64,000 bases of DNA. Source: Candidatus Magasanikbacteria bacterium CG11_big_fil_rev_8_21_14_0_20_39_34 (GTDB taxonomy: Bacteria > Patescibacteriota > Patescibacteriia > Magasanikbacterales > UBA922). The position numbers and the translations under genes are program-made. Shown piece after piece: positions 3,564-54,862 of the stretch. The first letter of the stretch is position 1; each line of letters starts with the position of its first letter. The stretch lies in NCBI GenBank assembly GCA_002787355.1, contig PCWN01000008.1:69873-133872 (forward strand). Reading direction: 5' to 3'. The notes beneath the pieces were generated by a model. That model was not told the DNA's origin. It saw nothing but the letters and a program-made list of their open reading frames with translations, and did no database searches.

Positions 3564-3637
3564 GGATCGGTAGTTCAACTGGTTAGAGCACCGCCCTGTC
3601 ACGGCGGAAGTTGCGGGTTCGAGTCCCGTCCGATCCG
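3564..3637 (+). tRNA. tRNA-Asp (anticodon GTC)
   Basis: Cloverleaf with acceptor GGATCGG/CCGATCC and discriminator G. The anticodon stem CCGCC/GGCGG carries the loop CTGTCAC (GTC). The T-arm is GGGTTCGAGTCCC. Near-identical in layout to bacterial tRNA-Asp. CCA is not encoded. Confidence 0.9.
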
Positions 3638-37335: not shown

Positions 37336-37410
37336 TGGTGCTCTCGCTAAGAATCGAACTTAGATCGTCGGTTCCGCAAACCGATGTTCTATCCATTGAA
37401 CTACGAGAGC
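37336..37410 (-). tRNA. tRNA-Arg-like (anticodon read as GCG), CCA encoded
   Basis: Reverse complement GCTCTCGTAGTTCAATGGATAGAACATCGGTTTGCGGAACCGACGATCTAAGTTCGATTCTTAGCGAGAGCACCA. The acceptor is a 7-bp stem GCTCTCG/CGAGAGC. The D-loop AATGGATAG is Arg-like. The anticodon stem TCGGT/ACCGA carries the loop TTGCGGA. The T-arm is CTAAG-TTCGATT-CTTAG. Confidence 0.8.
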
Positions 37411-45127: not shown

Positions 45128-46618
45128 TTGAGAAGGAATCATAGCACTTCTATGGAACAAACTATTGAAGGCCTCATAAAAAAAATTGAAAGCTACCGAA
45201 AAGAAGCGGATTTGGACATGATACGCCTGGCTTATGATTTTGCCAAAGCTGCACATGAGGGACAATTTAGGAAATCCGGTGAACCCTATATTATCCATCC
45301 CCTAGCAACAGCACATATCCTTGCAGATATGCGCATAGATCCCATTATTATCACCGCAGCACTCCTCCATGATGTTCCAGAAGATACCGATGTAACTATT
45401 GAGGAGGTTGAGGAAAATTTTGGGAGTGAGATAGCCGGACTTGTTCGTGGAATTACCAAACTCGGAAAGCTAAAATATCGAGGTGTTGAAAGATACTTAG
45501 AGAATCTTCGAAAAATGTTTGTGGCCATGGCAGAAGATGTCCGAGTCATGATTATTAAGTTTGCAGACAGAATACATAATCTTCAAACACTTCACGCACT
45601 CCCGGCAGAAAAAAGGTACCGCATTGCCTTGGAAAGCTTGGAAATTTATGCCCCTATTGCACATCGTCTTGGAATGGGAGAAATGAAAGGAGAACTGGAA
45701 GATCTTTCTTTTCGATATATCTATCCCAAGGAATTCCAACGTATTAAAAAAATGCGTGACGAAAAACTCAAAGAAAAAGAACGATACTTCGAACAAATGT
45801 GTGAAAAGGCAGCAGCAGAATTAAAAAAAGCAAATATTCCGGTTCTCTCCATCCAAGGAAGAAATAAAAGATTATACAGTTTTTACCAGAAACTTTTGCG
45901 AAAAGATAACCAAAGTACCAGCATCTATGATCTTGTAGCAATTAGAATTATTGTTCCAACCCTTGCTGACTGTTATGCAGCCCTTGGTATTCTTCACAAA
46001 GTTTGGAAACCCTTGAAAGGACGTATCAAAGACTATATTTCTCAAGCAAAACCCAATGGCTACCAGTCTCTTCATACCACGGTATTTGGAGATGGTGGAG
46101 AAATCTTGGAATTTCAAATCCGAACACAAGAAATGCACGAAGAGGCAGAATTTGGTGTTGCCGCACACTGGCATTATGATGAGAGAGGAAGACACATGCC
46201 CAAACAAGAAATTAAATGGGCACAAGAGCTTGCAGAGATACAAAAGGATATCCTTACCAAGTTAGCGGATCTAGACGAAATAAAAGTAGATTTTTTACAA
46301 TCAAGAATCTTTGTTTTTACCCCACAAGGAGACGTGATTGACCTGCCGGAAGGATCCTCTCCTGTAGATTTTGCCTATCACATCCACACCGAAATTGGTG
46401 ATAAATGTAGTGGTGCAATGGTGAACGAAAAATACGTTTCTCTCAATACAGAGCTTCAAAATGGTGATGTCGTTGAGATTATCATGGATAAAAATAGAAA
46501 AGCACCCAATCAAGAATGGTTGGACTTTGTGAAAACACACACCGCAAAATCTCATATAAAGGCCGCAAAAAATAAATCTCTCACTGACTGGATAAAATCA
46601 GTATTACCAAAAAAATAA
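45128..46618 (+). CDS. rel: bifunctional (p)ppGpp synthetase/hydrolase Rel (RelA/SpoT family, short form)
   Basis: HD hydrolase motifs (HPLATAHILA…LLHDVPEDT…KFADRIHNLQTL). Synthetase motifs (…IRIIV…NGYQSLHTTV…). TGS domain at the C-terminus. At 496 aa it apparently lacks a C-terminal ACT/RRM domain. Confidence 0.85.
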   Translation: MRRNHSTSMEQTIEGLIKKIESYRKEADLDMIRLAYDFAKAAHEGQFRKSGEPYIIHPLATAHILADMRIDPIIITAALLHDVPEDTDVTIEEVEENFGSEIAGLVRGITKLGKLKYRGVERYLENLRKMFVAMAEDVRVMIIKFADRIHNLQTLHALPAEKRYRIALESLEIYAPIAHRLGMGEMKGELEDLSFRYIYPKEFQRIKKMRDEKLKEKERYFEQMCEKAAAELKKANIPVLSIQGRNKRLYSFYQKLLRKDNQSTSIYDLVAIRIIVPTLADCYAALGILHKVWKPLKGRIKDYISQAKPNGYQSLHTTVFGDGGEILEFQIRTQEMHEEAEFGVAAHWHYDERGRHMPKQEIKWAQELAEIQKDILTKLADLDEIKVDFLQSRIFVFTPQGDVIDLPEGSSPVDFAYHIHTEIGDKCSGAMVNEKYVSLNTELQNGDVVEIIMDKNRKAPNQEWLDFVKTHTAKSHIKAAKNKSLTDWIKSVLPKK

Positions 46619-46652
46619 AAAGGACATTCAAAATTGAATGTCCTTTTTTTTG
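46619..46652. terminator. bidirectional rho-independent terminator between convergent rel and dnaJ
   Basis: AGGACATTCAA aa TTGAATGTCCT followed by TTTTTTTT. Confidence 0.65.
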
Positions 46653-46661
46653 TTTGTAAAA

Positions 46662-47768
46662 TTATTTTTCTAATTCATCTTGAAGTTCTTCCAAAAGTTT
46701 TTTCACTTTGCGAGAAACTTTTTTTGGAATATCTACAATGACTTGAACATAATGATCCCCTCGTCCACTTCCTTGCAAATGCGGGACACCAAGTCCTTTA
46801 AGACGCAACTGTTGATGTGATGCAGTTCCGGATGGAATGACCAACTTCTTTTCTCCATCCAAAGTAGGGATATCAATTTTATCTCCCAATACGGCCTGAG
46901 AGTAGCTTATCCTTGCCTTACTGTACACATCATATTCTTTCCGTACAAACTCTTTATGTGGCTTGATATGCACTACAACATACAAATCTCCAGCCTGTCC
47001 ACCCGCACCAGGATACTCACCATGAGAGGAAAGACGAATAGAGGCTCTATCATGAATCCCTGCAGGCACCTTTACCTTCAAAGTGCTGTCACTTCTTTTT
47101 ACCCCGTCCCCACCACAATGTTTACATTTTTTTTCAATAATCTGTCCGCTTCCTGCACAATTTGGACAATCTGAAACTGCTTGCATGGCGCCAAACATAG
47201 TTTGTTGCACTCTTCTCACTTGTCCTTTTCCACCACAACTCTCACAAGTTTTATGTGAGCTTCCCGGTTCTGCGCCAGATCCTGTACATACATCACAAGG
47301 ATTATTTTTTGCCAGTTTAATTTCCTTTTCTGTCCCAAAAGCAGCATCCTCAAAACTCACTTCAATATCTACCTGTATATCTCTTCCACGCCGTTGACCA
47401 CGTTGTCCCCCACGTCCACCACCAAACCCAAACATCTCACCAAAAATATCCCCAAGGTCAATTCCACCAAAATTCATGCCACCAAAGTCTCCTCCTTGTC
47501 CTCGTGAAGCACGCATAAAGTCATCCCAATTTGCTCCACCACCAAAACCACCTTGCTGGTCAAAGTCAGCACCAAACTGATCATATTGCTTTCTTTTTTG
47601 TGCATCACCCAATACCTGGTACGCTTCATTGACTTCCTTAAATTTTTCTTCATCTCCACCCTTTTTATCTGGATGATACTTGTGTGCCATCTTTCGAAAA
47701 GCTTTTTTTATTTCTTCTTCAGACGCCCCTTTCTCAACCCCGAGTGTTTTGTAGTAGTCTTTTGACAT
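46662..47768 (-). CDS. dnaJ: chaperone DnaJ
   Basis: J domain with HPD (KYHPDK). G/F-rich linker. Four CxxCxGxG zinc-finger repeats. C-terminal substrate-binding domains. The start was chosen at [10 protein letters not shown] (CAT 47766-47768). Confidence 0.9.
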
Positions 47769-47793
47769 GACAAAATGATTAACAATAAACAAA

Positions 47794-48891
47794 CTAAGTA
47801 CTTCTTCTTTTTTTCTCAAGGACTATCTCACTTGCAACCTCTCTTAGTGCCTGTTTGATTCCTTTCTCTGGAGCACCAAGGTAAATACCAGTCTCTGGAG
47901 TCTCTTCAGAATTTTGATTATTCCCCCAAAAGTCTAACGCTGTTTCTCGAATCTTTAAAATATTTCGGATCTCTTCATCTGCAAAATTGATACCACCACT
48001 TATCTGCGTAGGAAAGGGATTTTCTTCTTTACTTGAGATCTGCAAAATTTGATCAACCAATGCATCAAGAGATTCCTTTCTTTCTTGAGATGATTTTAAT
48101 GCTGCAATTTCTTCCAGTCTCCCAAAGTTTAAAAAGCTACTCAAAGAATACGCTTTCCATACCAACTTTTGGGTATTATCTACTTCTATTGGAACGCAAA
48201 TAGATATCCCCGTAGTTACTTGTACACCACATTCTCTTCGTAGATCCCCGGACCATTTTTCATCTACTGTCTTTGGTTCTTTTCGAAGCATATCCACCAA
48301 ATATTCCAACTCACTCTCAATCATAGTCCTTGGATCAACTTCATGCCAATTTTTATTTTCTTGAGAAAGGCTTTCTTTTGGTTTTGGTACAGCATCGCCT
48401 CTGTATTTTAGGATTCCATTGTCATCTCGAACCGCAAAATACGTAGGAAGAGTGTCTATCCCTATCAATACCTTGTCCATATGCTCTTTTAAGTCCCCAG
48501 ATACACCAATCAAAGATTCCAAAAGCAATGCAACTTTCCCAGTTGCCACTGCCTCTGCCATACGAGTCCTAAATGGATCCTGTACGCTTGCATGAGGATT
48601 CAATTTTTCGTACGATTCTTGAATCAATGCCTCATCCAAATCTTTTGTGCGAACTCCATCAACTTTTGAAAATCCAATCCCCTGCGTTTTACCATCTTCT
48701 CCTTGATACGTTCCAAACACTTTCTTTCGGTAATCTGAAGTTGTAGCAACCACTACAGTGCGCCCGAGAATTTCGTTGTAGACGGACTCAATCTCTGCTG
48801 AGGTAATTGTCTCCCGCTCTCGCAAAAAGTATTTTCTATGTCTTGATGGGTCTGAATCCATATTTTGATGAAGTGCCCCATTTTGGGGCAC
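47794..48891 (-). CDS. uncharacterised 365-aa protein encoded between dnaK and dnaJ
   Basis: Long ORF with a balanced, soluble-type composition and no motif I recognise. It is tightly packed between the dnaK stop (48919) and the dnaJ start (47768), on the same strand. Confidence 0.6.
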
Positions 48892-48918
48892 CTCTCATTA
48901 ATAGTTTTTTAAGAAAGT

Positions 48919-50862
48919 TTACTTTTGGTCGTCAACAACCTCACCTTCAACCGCATCGTCATCATTGTCCTTTTTATCAGTTTGAGCATCCTGTGTAGAT
49001 GCACCATCTTGAGGTTTTTGCTCCTTGGCCTGTTCTTGCTGGTACATCTTCATCCCAACGGCTTGTGCAGAGGTAGAAAGCTCTTCTGAGGCCTTTTTGA
49101 TAGCTTCCATATCTTCCCCGTCCTTTACTTCTTTGAGTTTTTTAAGACCTTCTTCTACTTTTGCTTTTTCTTCTTCGGTTACTTCAATTTTCTTTTCTTC
49201 TACTTCTTTCATCATTTTTTCTGTTGTGTACACCATTGTATCAGCTGTATTTTTTACGTCAATCAATTCCCGCTTTTGTTTGTCTTCTTGTGCATGTGCT
49301 TCTGCATCTTTTTTCATTTGTTCAATCTCTTCATCTGAAAGTCCACTTGAGGCTTCAATACGAATGGATTGTTCCTTTCCAGTTCCTTTATCTTTGGCAG
49401 AAACATTCAAAATTCCATTGGCATCAATATCAAACTTTACCTCAATTTGTGGAACTCCACGAGGAGCCGGTGGTACACCATCCAAAATAAATCTTCCCAA
49501 ATTTTTGTTGTCTACCGCCATTTGACGTTCTCCTTGCAAAACATTAATTTCTACACTTGGTTGATTATCTGCAGCTGTGGAAAATACCTGTGTTTTGCTC
49601 GTTGGGATAGTAGTATTTTTTTCAATTAATTTCGTCATTACTCCTCCCAAAGTTTCAAGCCCAAGAGAAAGTGGAGTTACATCCAAGAGAAGAATCTCCT
49701 TTCCAAGGTCACCTTGGAGCTGTCCTGCCTGAATAGCAGCACCTACCGCAACAACCTCATCAGGATTCACCGTCACATTTGGTTTTTTACCAAAGAATTC
49801 TTCTACCTTCTTTTGAATAAGAGGCATTCTGGTCATTCCACCCACCAAAATAATTTCATTAATGTCATCTTTTTCTACCCCCGCATCGGCAAGAGCTCGC
49901 TTCATTGGCTCCATTGTCTTATCTGCAAGTTCCATGACCAACTCTTCCATCTTTGCTCGAGTCAACTTTAGATTCAAGTGTTTTGGACCTTCAGCACCTG
50001 ATGTGATAAAAGGTTCATTTATCTCAGTTTCTGGGGTACTTGATAACTCAATTTTTGCTTTTTCTGCTGCATCTTTTACTCTCTGAAGTGAAAGAGGATC
50101 ATGAGAGAGGTCAATTCCTTCAACTTTCTTGAATTCCTCTAAAATCCATTCAATAATTTTTTTATCAAAGTCATCTCCACCAAGGTGAGTATCTCCATTG
50201 GTTGCCAACACCTCTACAGTAGAGTGTCCGTCCTCATGATCATGGGAAATATCTAATACAGAAACATCAAATGTCCCACCTCCCAAGTCATAAACCGCAA
50301 TCTTTTGATCATTCTTTTTATCAAATCCGTAAGCAAAAGCGGCTGCCGTTGGCTCATTGATCACACGCAAAACTTCCAAACCAGCAATTTCACCGGCATG
50401 CTTGGTAGCCTGTCTTTGTGAATCATCAAAATACGCAGGAACGGTAATTACCGCCTGAGTAATCTTTTCTCCTGTCTTTTCTTCTGCATCTGCTTTCAAC
50501 TTTTGCAATACCATTGCAGAAATTTCTGGTGCGGCATAATCATGATCACCCATTTTTACTTTAATTTTATCTCCATCTGCAATAATCTCATACGGAACAT
50601 GCTTTCTAATATCTGCAACCTCAGGATCCGTAGATTTTCTTCCAATAAGACGCTTGATAGAATGCAAAGTATTGGTTGGATTGGTGACGGCCTGTCGTTT
50701 TGCCAATTGTCCTACAAGACGTTCACCGGTTTTTGATACAGCAATAATTGAAGGTGTTGTTCTATTTCCTTCTTTATTCTCTAAAACTTTTGGCTGTCCA
50801 CCCTCTACAATTGCCATACATGAGTTGGTGGTACCAAGATCTATTCCTAAAATTTTTGACAT
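48919..50862 (-). CDS. dnaK: chaperone DnaK (Hsp70)
   Basis: Start at [14 protein letters not shown] (CAT 50860-50862). Hsp70 signatures [24 protein letters not shown] and an acidic C-terminal tail. The ORF-track N-terminal extension was ignored. Confidence 0.95.
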
Positions 50863-50916
50863 ATATATTTTTTTATTACGATAATTAAGATCTACGTTTT
50901 GTTCAACCCCTCTTTG

Positions 50917-50947
50917 CTTGGTACTAAAGAATTTCCATAGTACCAAG
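50917..50947 (-). other. intra-operon stem-loop between hsp20 and dnaK
   Basis: A perfect 9-bp inverted repeat CTTGGTACT (50917-50925) / AGTACCAAG (50939-50947) with a 13-nt loop. It is not followed by a T-run in the transcribed (minus) orientation. Confidence 0.35.
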
Positions 50948-50980
50948 AAACAAAAGTTAAACAAGAGAGGGATTCATCCT

Positions 50981-51433
50981 TTATTTTTTCTTTGTATTAT
51001 TTTTTACAACTTTTATATCTACCTTCTTTGTTTGTGCTGGACTTGCTTTTGGGCAAGTAATTTTTAAAACTCCATCACAAAATTCTGCATTAATTTTTTC
51101 TTCCTTTACGGATCCAGGGAGTGGCACCTTTCGAAAAAATGAACCACTTCGAATTTCTTTTCGATAATAATTTTTTTCTTCAATTTCATGTTCTGTTTTG
51201 GTTTCACCTCTTAATGTTACTACATTTTTTTCTACGGTGACCTCCACATCTTTTGGATCAAGACCAGCAAGATCCGCTTTTACAATTATATTATTTTTTT
51301 CTTCGTAGACGTCTACTGCTGGCGCAAAAGCGCTGTGTACAGATTGAAGTGCAGGGACACGCGGAAATGATGACATGATTTCCTCCATTTCGGAAAATGG
51401 ATCAAATCCTGGTGACCATTTAATCAAAGACAT
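50981..51433 (-). CDS. Hsp20/alpha-crystallin family small heat-shock protein
   Basis: 150-aa protein with an alpha-crystallin domain (PAVDVYEE…IVKADLAG…KDVEVTVE…LRGE…FFRKVPLP…AEFCDGVLKI). Confidence 0.85.
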   Translation of the reverse strand: MSLIKWSPGFDPFSEMEEIMSSFPRVPALQSVHSAFAPAVDVYEEKNNIIVKADLAGLDPKDVEVTVEKNVVTLRGETKTEHEIEEKNYYRKEIRSGSFFRKVPLPGSVKEEKINAEFCDGVLKITCPKASPAQTKKVDIKVVKNNTKKK

Positions 51434-51491
51434 ATGTTTGCCTCCTGTAACTTTGAAAGGAAAATATCAAAGTTACTTAATGAATTAAAAT

Positions 51492-52043
51492 TTATTTATT
51501 TTCTCTTCTACAAACTACAACCCGTGCCGCCTGGATTACCCCATTGCTGGTTTTATATCCACCACTTAACTCCTGTAAGACTATCCCATCTTCACACTCA
51601 TCATTATCCTCTTCCTTTACAGCCTCATGCATAGCTGGGTCAAATGGTTCACCCACCGTTTTTATTTCTTCAATTCCATGTGCGGAAAGAACGGTCCAAA
51701 ATTGCTTCATAATATATTCAATCCCCTTTTTCCAGTTTTCCCAACTTGCTTGACTACTATCTGCAGAATCTAAACCCTGTACTGAAAAAGCAAATGCTTT
51801 TTTAAAGTTCTCATATATGGGAATAAACTCTTCAAGAATTTGAACTTCACTCATCTTGGCCCAGGCACTGCGTTGTGTTGAAACTTCTTTTTGTAAATTT
51901 TGATAATCAGCCTGTGCACGAAGCCATCCTAACTTATACTGTGCACAGTTTTCACATTCTCCGTTTTCTTGTGATGTTTCTGTCACCAACGTCTCTTGAT
52001 CTTCTTGAATTTCATTTTCAATTTGTTTTTCTTTTTTACTCAT
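51492..52043 (-). CDS. grpE: nucleotide exchange factor GrpE
   Basis: Coiled-coil N-terminal part and a GrpE C-terminal domain with FDPAMHEAV. Confidence 0.85.
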   Translation of the reverse strand: MSKKEKQIENEIQEDQETLVTETSQENGECENCAQYKLGWLRAQADYQNLQKEVSTQRSAWAKMSEVQILEEFIPIYENFKKAFAFSVQGLDSADSSQASWENWKKGIEYIMKQFWTVLSAHGIEEIKTVGEPFDPAMHEAVKEEDNDECEDGIVLQELSGGYKTSNGVIQAARVVVCRRENK

Positions 52044-52048
52044 AGAAT

Positions 52049-52732
52049 CTAATGCATTAAATCATGAATTTTTGATATAAGCTTTATATTATTTTTGTAA
52101 CGCATACGCATAGGACCAAGGAGTATGAAAAGATGTTCATTTCCAAAACGAGTTACAATAGAACTACATTCTCCTCCAAAAGGATTCTCGGATCCAATAA
52201 ATACTTTAATCTCATTCTTTGCTATCTGTTCATATACCTCGGGTATTCTACTCTCACACTCATCAAACACAGAAGATACATTTAATGTATATGCATAATT
52301 TTGAAATTCGGGCTGAGAAAAAAGATTTGAAATACCCGTATAGTACAAACTATTTTTCCCAAATGAAACAATAACCGCATTCCCCGCAAATTCTGCAGAA
52401 AATTTTGCAAATGCCTTTATTTTTTCTTTTGGTTCTTGAGACACAACCAGTGAGGTATCAAATAAATTGTGTGTGTCTTTTGTAATTTCTTCCCCTAAAT
52501 CGAGATGCTCCACATAGTATTTATACCCCAACTCGGTAGGGATTCTTCCCGCAGAGGTATGCGGATGGGTTAAATATCCCATCTCCTCCAAGGCACGAAG
52601 CTCATTTCGTATAGTAGCCCCAGAAACGTCAAAATCGCTATTTTCAGACAAAAAACTTGACCCAATGGGCTCTACAGTATTTATATAGCTCTCAATCACA
52701 AACATGAGTATAGCCTCTTGTCTTTCAGTCAT
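52049..52732 (-). CDS. hrcA: heat-inducible transcription repressor HrcA (short form)
   Basis: The N-terminal winged helix LTERQEAILMFVIESYINTVEPIGS…ATIRNELRALEEMGYLTHPHTSAGRIPTELGYKYYVEHL matches HrcA. It is first in the operon and is preceded by a CIRCE element. Confidence 0.8.
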   Translation of the reverse strand: MTERQEAILMFVIESYINTVEPIGSSFLSENSDFDVSGATIRNELRALEEMGYLTHPHTSAGRIPTELGYKYYVEHLDLGEEITKDTHNLFDTSLVVSQEPKEKIKAFAKFSAEFAGNAVIVSFGKNSLYYTGISNLFSQPEFQNYAYTLNVSSVFDECESRIPEVYEQIAKNEIKVFIGSENPFGGECSSIVTRFGNEHLFILLGPMRMRYKNNIKLISKIHDLMH

Positions 52733-52733
52733 A

Positions 52734-52760
52734 TTATCACTCTTTATACATGAGTGATAA
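52734..52760. promoter_or_regulatory. CIRCE-like HrcA operator (TTATCACTC-N9-GAGTGATAA)
   Basis: A perfect 9-N9-9 inverted repeat. It differs from the consensus TTAGCACTC-N9-GAGTGCTAA at one position per arm. It lies immediately 5' of the hrcA ATG and overlaps the predicted -10. Confidence 0.75.
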
Positions 52761-52785
52761 TATCATAGCTTGAAATTTTGGTCAA
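52757..52785 (-). promoter_or_regulatory. sigma-70-type promoter of the hrcA-grpE-hsp20-dnaK-X-dnaJ operon
   Basis: On the minus strand: TTGACC (52785-52780), a 17-nt spacer, then TATTAT (52762-52757). The -10 overlaps the right CIRCE half-site. Confidence 0.5.
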
Positions 52786-52825
52786 AATAGAGTTATCCAC
52801 AAGAATACCCTCCTCAGCAGCAAAA

Positions 52826-52856
52826 TAAAAAACCGGCTTTTAGTCCGGTTTTTTTG
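52826..52856. terminator. bidirectional rho-independent terminator downstream of the SPFH gene
   Basis: ACCGG cttttagt CCGGT with an A-run upstream and a T-run downstream. Confidence 0.6.
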
Positions 52857-52874
52857 CTATTTTTTGAGAAAAAA

Positions 52875-53477
52875 TTATTCCTCAGCAGTAGTTTTTTTGT
52901 ATTCCTTTACATTGGCAATTTCAGAAAGAAGGACATTTTCTACAAAAATCCCACGAGAGTAAAAAATTCTTTCAAGTTCATTTTTTAACTGAACTTCTAC
53001 CTCATCTCGCTTCTGCCCCATGACAGCATCCTGGGTGAACCGACAAGCTACCATACGAATACGACTACGTACCGTAGGACGAATAATCTTAGATACAAAG
53101 TCTTCACCAATAGTTTGCCAGATATTTGGAATCTGTTGCATGTCCAACCGTAACAAAATAGTTCCCTCGACACCAATACGTTGATTATCTTCGGTAACGG
53201 CTGCAATGGGAATATCTCCCAATGCATTTTCATTTGCTAAGTTGAAATCACGTGAAATGCTATATTCTAACGTCTGTGTATTAAAAAGCTTTGCCTTTTG
53301 CCAAAAAGGGATTTTAAAATGTAGTCCCGGTTTCAAAACTTTTTTTATGACTCCTTTTCCAAGATCATAAACACAAGCAACGTATCCCGGTGGTACTTTA
53401 ATAAATATTCCCTTCAGCACATCCTCCATCACAAAGGAGTACATTAGTTTATCGAGTGATTCGCCACCTTGACTCAT
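52875..53477 (-). CDS. SPFH/band-7 (stomatin/prohibitin/HflK-C-like) domain protein
   Basis: 200-aa protein whose pattern (…GLHFKIPFWQKA…TQTLE…IPAAVTEDNQRIGVEGTILLRL…, C-terminal helical QLKNELERIF…GIFVENVLLSEI) fits the SPFH core. Confidence 0.7.
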   Translation of the reverse strand: MSQGGESLDKLMYSFVMEDVLKGIFIKVPPGYVACVYDLGKGVIKKVLKPGLHFKIPFWQKAKLFNTQTLEYSISRDFNLANENALGDIPIAAVTEDNQRIGVEGTILLRLDMQQIPNIWQTIGEDFVSKIIRPTVRSRIRMVACRFTQDAVMGQKRDEVEVQLKNELERIFYSRGIFVENVLLSEIANVKEYKKTTAEE

Positions 53478-53522
53478 ATGATAATTTATAAATTAACAAT
53501 GTTTAAGAAAATAAAGGAAAAA

Positions 53523-54230
53523 TTATGCTTTTTTCTTTTTTGGTCCCCGAAACAACAGCAAACTGACCCATCCAATCACTAAAGAAAAAATCATTGAAGC
53601 TAATATGAATAAAGATTTTACCATAGGCAACCACCATAATGCGAGAAAAACAGACAGAGGAAAAAGGAAAAAAAACATGAGATCCGACTTATACAGATTA
53701 TTCTTTCTTCCACGAAATTCAAAATAAATTTCCACAAGTAAAAATAACGTTATCAGTCCTGGCCAAAAAAGTGTATTCCTTTCTCCAAGTTCAAACCCAT
53801 AAAAAGTAGTATTGATAGCTCCGGGAAAATCCACGGAATCATAGAGAAGATTCACAACATTTTTTCCTACAATACCATGTGTAAAGACTTGATACAAAAG
53901 CACCAAAAACAAACCCTGTATTCCCAAACTCATTGCCTTTGCCCAAGGGCTAACCTTTCGTTTTTTGAGGACCTTTCGTATTTCTTCTTTCTTTTGAACC
54001 GGATCTTTTGCATAATCCTTTTCCAAACGTTTTACTTCATCTGAAAGTTCAATATTACTTATTTTGTTGCGCTCCATGATAAGAGTCAAAGGCAACAAAA
54101 ACATTCGCAAAAGGATTGTGACGTATATCACAGCCCACCCTAAATTTTGTTCTGTCCAATTATTATAGGCATAGAACAAAAAATTAAAGAGTGGCCGGAA
54201 CAAAAAATCATTCCAAATACTTGAGAACAT
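53523..54230 (-). CDS. yidC: YidC/Oxa1 family membrane protein insertase (short, monoderm-type)
   Basis: …VTILLRMFLLPLTL…SNIELSDEVKRLEKDYAKDPVQKKEEIRKVLKKRKVSPW… matches the conserved YidC TM1-loop region. There are 5 hydrophobic segments and a Lys-rich C-terminus. Confidence 0.7.
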   Translation of the reverse strand: MFSSIWNDFLFRPLFNFLFYAYNNWTEQNLGWAVIYVTILLRMFLLPLTLIMERNKISNIELSDEVKRLEKDYAKDPVQKKEEIRKVLKKRKVSPWAKAMSLGIQGLFLVLLYQVFTHGIVGKNVVNLLYDSVDFPGAINTTFYGFELGERNTLFWPGLITLFLLVEIYFEFRGRKNNLYKSDLMFFFLFPLSVFLALWWLPMVKSLFILASMIFSLVIGWVSLLLFRGPKKKKA

Positions 54231-54286
54231 ATACAGATATTATACCTAAAAAAGGTCAAAAAATCAAGTATCTTCCAAAAAAGTTT

Positions 54287-54862
54287 TTATGCCACAGATT
54301 TGTCTAGCTCAGATAGAAATTGACGAACCAGCTCTTCTGAGAGACCCAAAATAGCACTGTATTCTCCCTCATAGCCTTCAATCCAAGTGGCTGCTCTCCC
54401 CTGCAGAGCATAGGCCCCAGCCTTATCCATCCAGTCTGCTTGTGGGTCATCCAGGTAATCCTGAATCTGCTTATCATCCATCTGCTTAAAGAAAATAGAA
54501 GCTTCTTTATGTCCAACATATTGTTTTCCGGGAGCCAAGAGTGCAACACCCGTATAGACAAAACTCTTTTTCCCCTGAAGACTCTTTACCATACCAAAGG
54601 CATCATCTTTTGTTTTTGGTTTTCCCAAAAGTTTCCCCTCCGGATCCAATACAATAGTATCGGAACCAATGACAGCCGCATCTGTATATTTTTCAAAAAT
54701 ATCTGCTGCTTTTTGAATTGCAAAATCCTCTACTAAATCTATTGCGTTGGTATGCAAAGAATGGTTTTCTTCAAAATTGCTTGGAATTATTTCATAATCA
54801 AGACCCATTTTATCCATAACTTCTTTTCTCCTGGGGCTTGATGATGCAAGTATAAGGCGCAT
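54287..54862 (-). CDS. maf: Maf-like nucleoside-triphosphate pyrophosphatase
   Basis: MRLILASSSPRRKEVMDKMGL…, …VIGSDTIV… and a conserved C-terminus. Confidence 0.85.
   Translation of the reverse strand: MRLILASSSPRRKEVMDKMGLDYEIIPSNFEENHSLHTNAIDLVEDFAIQKAADIFEKYTDAAVIGSDTIVLDPEGKLLGKPKTKDDAFGMVKSLQGKKSFVYTGVALLAPGKQYVGHKEASIFFKQMDDKQIQDYLDDPQADWMDKAGAYALQGRAATWIEGYEGEYSAILGLSEELVRQFLSELDKSVA

Follow-up and report, generated by a model that had tools for sequence, protein, structure and literature searches.

The window, a stretch of 64,000 nt from the MAG of Candidatus Magasanikbacteria bacterium CG11_big_fil_rev_8_21_14_0_20_39_34 (Patescibacteria/CPR), carries a heat-shock locus on its minus strand. 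Pfam annotation of the open reading frames gives the gene order hrcA-grpE-hsp20-dnaK-X-dnaJ, in agreement with a previous sequence-only reading of the same DNA. The hrcA gene (52049..52732, -) encodes a short form of 227 aa (Pfam HrcA, E = 8e-12) and is followed by grpE (51492..52043, -; 183 aa; Pfam GrpE, E = 4.7e-33; without a NUDIX domain) and hsp20 (50981..51433, -; Pfam HSP20, E = 1.6e-22). The dnaK gene (48919..50862, -) encodes 647 aa from its ATG, the same length as in the public gene call (Pfam HSP70, E = 6.7e-248), and dnaJ (46662..47768, -), also a public gene call, encodes 368 aa from its ATG with the Pfam domains DnaJ, DnaJ_CXXCXGXG and DnaJ_C. Between the two lies X, an open reading frame of 365 aa when read from a GTG (47794..48891, -), whose GTG follows the dnaK stop by 27 nt and whose stop precedes the dnaJ ATG by 25 nt, exactly as had been described. 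The placement of hsp20 between grpE and dnaK, previously considered unusual, turns out to be the norm of the lineage, as it is found in every related locus that covers this region.

The unit is headed by a CIRCE-like palindrome, TTATCACTC-N9-GAGTGATAA (52734-52760, -), with two symmetric mismatches to the consensus; 0.03 matches of that quality are expected by chance. It stops 1 nt short of the hrcA ATG, so that hardly any 5′ leader is left, and it overlaps the -10 box of the sole good promoter-like sequence, TTGACC-17-TATTAT (52785-52757, -). A terminator-like hairpin (52854-52827) bounds the unit upstream, and a bidirectional intrinsic terminator with a 14-bp stem and then a T-run (46617..46648, -) follows dnaJ; terminators were found at the ends of the unit only. 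With an operator and promoter at the head and terminator-like hairpins at both ends, the six genes form one bounded HrcA-type unit, as the CIRCE-controlled operon proposed earlier had implied, and X, lying within this unit, is a predicted member of the HrcA/CIRCE regulon. The operator variant is specific to the lineage, with G-to-T and C-to-A changes that preserve the palindrome, and it recurs in three related loci, designated L007 (92-118), L008 (two copies in tandem, 683-709 and 717-743) and L018 (906-932). HrcA is likewise short across the lineage, at 224-228 aa (L007 205-891, L008 755-1435, L018 934-1617 and the window), compared with roughly 340 aa in model bacteria. In these proteins Pfam matches a winged-helix N-terminus, and of the HrcA C-terminal domain model it covers no more than the distal half.

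X is a real gene rather than a chance open reading frame, since 9 contigs carry copies that are identical or nearly so and diverged homologues are found at 24-43% identity; in the public record it is the hypothetical protein PIR03858.1. Its true start is probably the ATG at 48861, giving a protein of 355 aa (47794..48861, -), rather than the GTG at 48891. Several observations favor this choice: phmmer finds similarity to the relatives only from about residue 31 onward when the 365-aa form is used, the N-termini of relatives (MSIDS.., MTGES..) align with the MDSDPS of the ATG form, two public gene calls use this ATG, and nearly all neighboring genes start with an ATG behind an A/T-rich leader devoid of a Shine-Dalgarno sequence. 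Additionally, the GTG and its purine-run flank are covered by a GC-rich hairpin just past the dnaK stop (48866..48897, -), which has a 14-bp stem, an AAA loop and no U-tract, and which ends 4 nt before the ATG.

The hairpin has a folding energy of -24.7 kcal/mol (z = -3.97), with 0 of 200 shuffles as stable. Comparable hairpins follow dnaK in 8 of 9 loci, at -19.5 to -27 kcal/mol in low-GC genomes, and equivalents were located in L008, L014, L018 and L021-L024. They begin 0-32 nt after the dnaK stop, differ in sequence and have poor or partial U-tracts. We rejected a terminator function for the window hairpin, which has no U-tract and is followed by the essential dnaJ without a promoter of its own, as well as an RNA thermometer masking the GTG, given the excessive stability of the stem and the stronger case for the ATG start. 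The hairpin is likely an attenuator or an mRNA 3′-stabilizer that sets the stoichiometry of dnaK to dnaJ, and by attenuation or 3′-end stabilization it probably keeps the level of X-dnaJ below that of dnaK. In Salmonella, the expression of dnaK and dnaJ has been found to differ across their intergenic region (PMC12077118).

The sequence-only reading could place no motif in X, and searches with X alone return nothing meaningful from Pfam, NCBIfam, PHROGs or PDB sequences; the Pfam and NCBIfam Maf models give no match even at E <= 10. An exhaustive phmmer search of X against 1.84 billion (1.84e9) protein cluster representatives allowed us to collect its family. Two of the 12 matches were repeat artefacts and 10 were true relatives, with P0005 and P0006 at 42-43% identity and the eight others at 26-43% over the matched stretches. 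A word-indexed homologue search returned nothing but X itself when started from X and no more than 2 relatives when started from the family profile, while a metagenome scan yielded just two contigs, both already known from the genome collection.

Through these relatives, X can be assigned to the Maf family. First, 9 of the 11 family members individually match Pfam Maf (PF02545; best E = 1.6e-9), and the gathering score is passed by five (P0010, P0011, P0015, P0016 and P0017; 27.9-38.2 bits). X itself falls short of the curated Maf HMMs, although it is tied to these five passing relatives by phmmer at E = 1e-5 to 1e-3, and one relative carries the NCBI label ‘Maf family protein’. Second, in hhalign the X family matches the canonical Maf of the window alone at 78% probability and, across the whole Maf domain, a four-sequence Maf profile at 96.3% (E = 1.3e-9). 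When an HMM built from the X family is run on the open reading frames of all fetched loci, this canonical Maf is its only other match; against PDB sequences, the family profile gives noise only (eL15 at E = 0.025, ASMTL-Maf at E = 0.85). Third, from the family alignment AlphaFold2 gives a model (pLDDT 79.8, pTM 0.79; from X as a single sequence pLDDT 41, unusable) with a predicted Maf alpha/beta, ITPase-like fold. In Foldseek the 14 best PDB matches to this model are all Maf, each at probability 1.0, and fold searches with it recover Maf/ITPase-type enzymes only. The profile and structure searches recommended earlier thus point to a single answer: on transitive evidence and by its modelled structure, X is a highly diverged, enlarged Maf paralogue. 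It is an extra paralogue and not the housekeeping copy, as the genome also carries an ordinary YhdE-type maf of 191 aa (54287..54862, -; PDB Maf matches at E = 2e-28) with the full S-R-E-K-D-K signature and an R-T-Q triad. Our literature search yielded no precedent for Maf in dnaK operons or for Maf in Patescibacteria, and we know of no established role of the Maf family in proteostasis.

Identifying the family allowed us to interrogate its active site. The Maf signature S-R-E-K-D-K corresponds to S10, R13, E33, K52, D70 and K82 of YhdE; alanine mutants of R13, K52, D70 and K82 are inactive, and E33A keeps low activity (PMC3899018). We aligned the X family jointly with B. subtilis Maf, YhdE, ASMTL-Maf and the window Maf in MAFFT. 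The columns of B. subtilis S11, R14, K53, D70, T71 and K82 are occupied by S, R, K, D, T and K in every one of the 10 full-length members, and all 10 have an invariant Glu displaced by one column from the signature Glu, B. subtilis E34. X thereby shows the signature with S42, R45, K109, D136 and K160, and with E77 one column away (numbering from the ATG). According to the alignment the stretch lies at 48382..48738 (-), with codons for S42 at 48738-36, Y44/R45 at 48732-27, E77 at 48633-31, K109 at 48537-35, D136-T137 at 48456-51 and K160 at 48384-82. The residues S42, R45, E77, K109, D136, T137 and K160 make up 7 of the 15 near-invariant positions of the family, which also include structural Gly and Pro. 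Judged from the aligned sequences, the strongest family-wide constraint falls on the catalytic residues. By homology, X retains the complete catalytic core, in which Ser, Arg and two Lys would bind phosphate, Glu the metal, and Asp-Thr would act as the general base, and it most likely cleaves an NTP-type substrate to NMP and pyrophosphate. This general chemistry, together with the superfold, is predicted to be shared with the HAM1/ITPase/RdgB house-cleaning NTP pyrophosphatases.

The part of the protein that recognizes the base has been rebuilt. Maf subfamilies are distinguished by triads, R-T-Q in YhdE and W-Q-E in YceF (PMC3899018). At the YhdE-type Arg (YhdE Arg12) the X family has Tyr, Phe or Leu, which is YceF-like, with Tyr in X itself, and, as in YhdE, a Thr follows the Asp. 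In place of AYGIQ there is (S/T)GGI(N/D)(F/Y/W), and an extra helix comes next. The resulting triad, (Y/F/L)-T-?, fits neither the YhdE nor the YceF subfamily, its third residue, for which N292, A294 and E306 of X are candidates, not being placeable because hhalign and MAFFT disagree. Compared with the YhdE subfamily (B. subtilis Maf/BSU28050, E. coli YhdE, human ASMTL-Maf), X is longer, has Arg12 and AYGIQ replaced, lies below Pfam detection and is found in the context of a dnaK operon instead of mreBCD. Compared with the m7GTP-preferring YceF subfamily (E. coli YceF, T. brucei Maf1), X has Thr in place of Gln as its second specificity residue, the family has large insertions, and an equivalent of Glu154 is not assignable in X.

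Family members measure 300-358 aa, as against about 190 for a canonical Maf, and X has about 150 extra, mostly helical residues. In the model, two helices extend the N-terminus, the beta-hairpin behind the DT is longer, helical segments are inserted behind the KP motif and, at greater length, behind the TG(I/V)A hairpin, and one further helix each is added at the C-terminus and, as noted, where the base is recognized. A 10-residue insertion directly after the phosphate-binding S-x-Y-R (residues 50-59; 48685-48714, -) is unique to X and missing from every relative. With the base pocket rebuilt and about 150 residues added, the substrate of X is probably unlike that of the canonical Maf 5 kb away, and the altered pocket makes a new substrate specificity likely.

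These results bear directly on the earlier suggestion that a gene embedded in a dnaK operon is usually a chaperone cofactor, and X hence a candidate co-chaperone or heat-shock client factor. One could still imagine a factor that binds DnaK and/or DnaJ or handles their clients, in which the Maf fold would have been re-used for scaffolding while the helical insertions provided the interaction surface. Such a role would fit the conserved tight adjacency to dnaJ described below, the roughly 150 residues of family-specific insertions that match no known domain, and the fast evolution of the sequence outside the core. However, no match in Pfam, NCBIfam or the PDB indicates a J-domain, a GrpE fold or any other known DnaK-interacting module. 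The strongest constraint lies on catalytic positions and not on a surface patch, which is the pattern of an enzyme, and X is missing from close relatives whose DnaK and DnaJ are otherwise the same. We therefore regard a co-chaperone role as very unlikely; on present evidence X is not a new kind of chaperone component.

Comparison of related loci supports the link to dnaJ and at the same time qualifies it. An X-like gene lies directly 5′ of dnaJ and downstream of dnaK in four further genomes, at 24-40% protein identity. The two Magasanikiibacteriota MAGs read dnaK, GIY-YIG, X-like, dnaJ (L007; gap of 23 nt) and dnaK, orf202, membrane orf201, X-like, dnaJ (L008; gap of 8 nt). In GCA_964634875.1 (L014/L015) the order is hrcA, grpE, hsp20, Vut_1, dnaK, DUF4230, X-like, dnaJ with a gap of 5 nt, and in GCA_020632445.1 (L018) it is yidC, SPFH, hrcA, grpE, hsp20, orf111, dnaK, X-like, dnaJ with a gap of 3 nt; downstream of dnaJ, the latter continues with relA and topA, as the window does. 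The gaps between the X-like gene and dnaJ are thus 25, 23, 8, 5 and 3 nt across the five genomes with the window included, and the X-like gene is always the last in the interval, abutting dnaJ whatever else the interval holds. Conversely, none of five relatives chosen by DnaJ similarity (62-72% identity) has an X-like gene near dnaJ, and the X-family HMM agrees for the four loci with DNA. The synteny check suggested in the sequence-only reading is thus positive, in that four further genomes keep an X-like gene beside dnaJ. That reading had named a match to a well-known family unrelated to proteostasis, combined with a lack of synteny with dnaK, as what would speak against its idea; the former is what we find, in the form of Maf, and the latter is not.

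Between dnaK and dnaJ there is a slot whose contents vary. In the DnaJ-selected relatives it holds DUF4230, orf72, DUF3467 and orf222 in one genome, DUF4230, DM13 and orf72 in L021, DUF3467 in L022, and orf103 and DUF4230 in L024. It is empty in L023, where dnaK is 75 nt from dnaJ and X is absent although the DnaJ is 87% identical to that of the X-carrying L018. A truncated open reading frame before dnaJ in L023 was considered as an X-like candidate and rejected, being the C-terminus of DnaK. Over the surveyed loci (L007, L008, L014, L021, L022, L024 and the P0018 locus, with L023 empty) the contents are DUF4230 (4 loci), DUF3467 (2), DM13, a GIY-YIG nuclease gene and family-less open reading frames. 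Since the interval is such a variable slot in this lineage, to conclude from embedding that a gene is a cofactor is a weak inference.

The similarity of the X-like proteins also does not follow that of their neighbors: X-like pairs are 24-40% identical where DnaJ is 56-72% and DnaK 70-85% identical. For example, the window and L018 share 85% in DnaK, 72% in DnaJ and 28% in the X-like protein, compared with 70%, 57% and 37% for the window and L007, and 82%, 68% and 27% for L007 and L014. On sequence grounds this incongruence suggests exchange or replacement and not stable co-inheritance. Together, the X-less relatives, the low identity of X and the incongruence mean that the slot is variable and that X, which is dispensable and sporadic, is either fast-evolving or exchanged between lineages.

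One possible explanation is therefore that X is a Maf-type protein whose position carries no meaning, a passenger in a permissive, recombination-prone slot that collects accessory genes. The mixed contents of the slot in relatives, or its emptiness, and the incongruent similarities are in keeping with this idea. So is the location of other family members: four more distant ones were not seen beside dnaK or dnaJ, with P0017 lying after mgsA and before queH, P0015 after mgsA, P0010 before dsbB, and P0008 close to the end of a short contig that breaks off before any downstream gene. However, chance is unlikely to have placed a Maf-like gene last in the slot, 3-25 nt before dnaJ, in all five genomes, the more so as three deeply diverged X-like types (24-28% identity) share the position, which points to selection for co-expression with dnaJ. 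We consider a meaningless position rather unlikely, though the most serious of the alternatives weighed here. The earlier interpretation is supported in part: the link to dnaJ is real, and X is a divergent Maf-type enzyme rather than an unplaceable co-chaperone candidate.

The explanation that we favor, and hold to be reasonably probable, is that X is a Maf-type NTP pyrophosphatase co-expressed with the heat-shock proteins, which either cleans the nucleotide pool or brakes growth. As X forms a tight pair with dnaJ inside an HrcA/CIRCE-controlled unit, its level should rise with heat shock; its transcription would proceed by read-through of the hairpin after dnaK, which could also lower the expression of X or uncouple it from heat induction. 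X might then remove non-canonical or modified NTPs that are released and salvaged during stress-induced RNA turnover. Alternatively, by analogy with E. coli YhdE, it might lower the pyrimidine NTP pool and so slow growth and division while proteins are being refolded. YhdE slows growth, most strongly under stress, and its pyrophosphatase activity is needed for this effect (PMC4319933).

There is a parallel in the dnaK operons of Gram-positive bacteria, where non-chaperone enzymes of nucleic acids or nucleotides are likewise co-transcribed with an HrcA/CIRCE unit. The operon of B. subtilis, for example, reads hrcA-grpE-dnaK-dnaJ-prmA-rsmE-mtaB. Unlike here, however, the additional enzymes are methyltransferases or methylthiotransferases located after dnaJ, whereas X is a putative pyrophosphatase between dnaK and dnaJ. 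The assignment turns a hypothetical protein into a testable enzyme and delineates a rare subfamily of long Maf proteins whose catalytic residues are intact. If confirmed, it would extend the proposed role of Maf in stress and as a growth brake, and would offer a handle on the stress physiology of uncultured Patescibacteria.

A second connection between this operon and pyrophosphohydrolases was noted in the relatives. Four related Magasanikbacteria operons encode a NUDIX::GrpE fusion of about 300 aa (L007 931-1842, L008 1444-2364, L022 1036-1941 and L024 641-1549), in which Pfam NUDIX (E = 2e-23 and 3e-22) covers residues 10-120 and a full GrpE domain follows; the NUDIX part is weakly MutT-like. 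In the literature we found no precedent for NUDIX-GrpE fusions, which may be of more interest than X itself. CPR bacteria depend on nucleotide salvage. The placement of X 5′ of dnaJ and the NUDIX::GrpE fusions suggest that these bacteria tie control of the nucleotide pool to the heat-shock response.

A more direct connection can also be envisaged, in which X, like the NUDIX domain joined to GrpE in sister genomes, would hydrolyse an adenine nucleotide that matters to Hsp70, for instance ADP, or an Ap4A-type alarmone, and would thereby modulate the nucleotide cycle of DnaK or the alarmone, tuning chaperone cycling in energy-poor symbionts. Ap4A-type alarmones rise on heat shock in E. coli. That this one operon is linked to two pyrophosphohydrolase folds unrelated to each other, one as NUDIX::GrpE and one as the Maf-like gene by dnaJ, speaks for this idea, as does the non-canonical base pocket of X. 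The argument is purely contextual, however, and the substrates favored by known Mafs are pyrimidine or modified NTPs (PMC3899018). The resemblance of the NUDIX part to MutT is only weak, and X and NUDIX::GrpE do not co-vary, with both, either or neither being present. We give such a modulator little credence. Equally improbable in our view is its general form, that the Hsp70 system of Magasanikbacteria is coupled directly to pyrophosphohydrolases (NUDIX on GrpE, Maf co-translated with DnaJ) acting on the nucleotides of the chaperone, such as released ADP or Ap4A, and not on house-cleaning substrates; if true, Hsp70 in these energy-limited symbionts would be regulated at an additional, new level. 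A house-cleaning or growth-braking pyrophosphatase remains the explanation that we favor for X.

Two further features of the window were recorded. No known RNA element was found by the Rfam scan within the operon; elsewhere in the window Rfam identifies a tmRNA gene (1380-1775, +) and two tRNA genes (3564-3637, +, and 37339-37410, -), which are unrelated to X. In the region 46662-54862 (-), the ATG codons of SPFH, hrcA, grpE, dnaK, X, dnaJ, maf and yidC are not preceded by a Shine-Dalgarno-like sequence, and hsp20 alone has an AGGAGG upstream.
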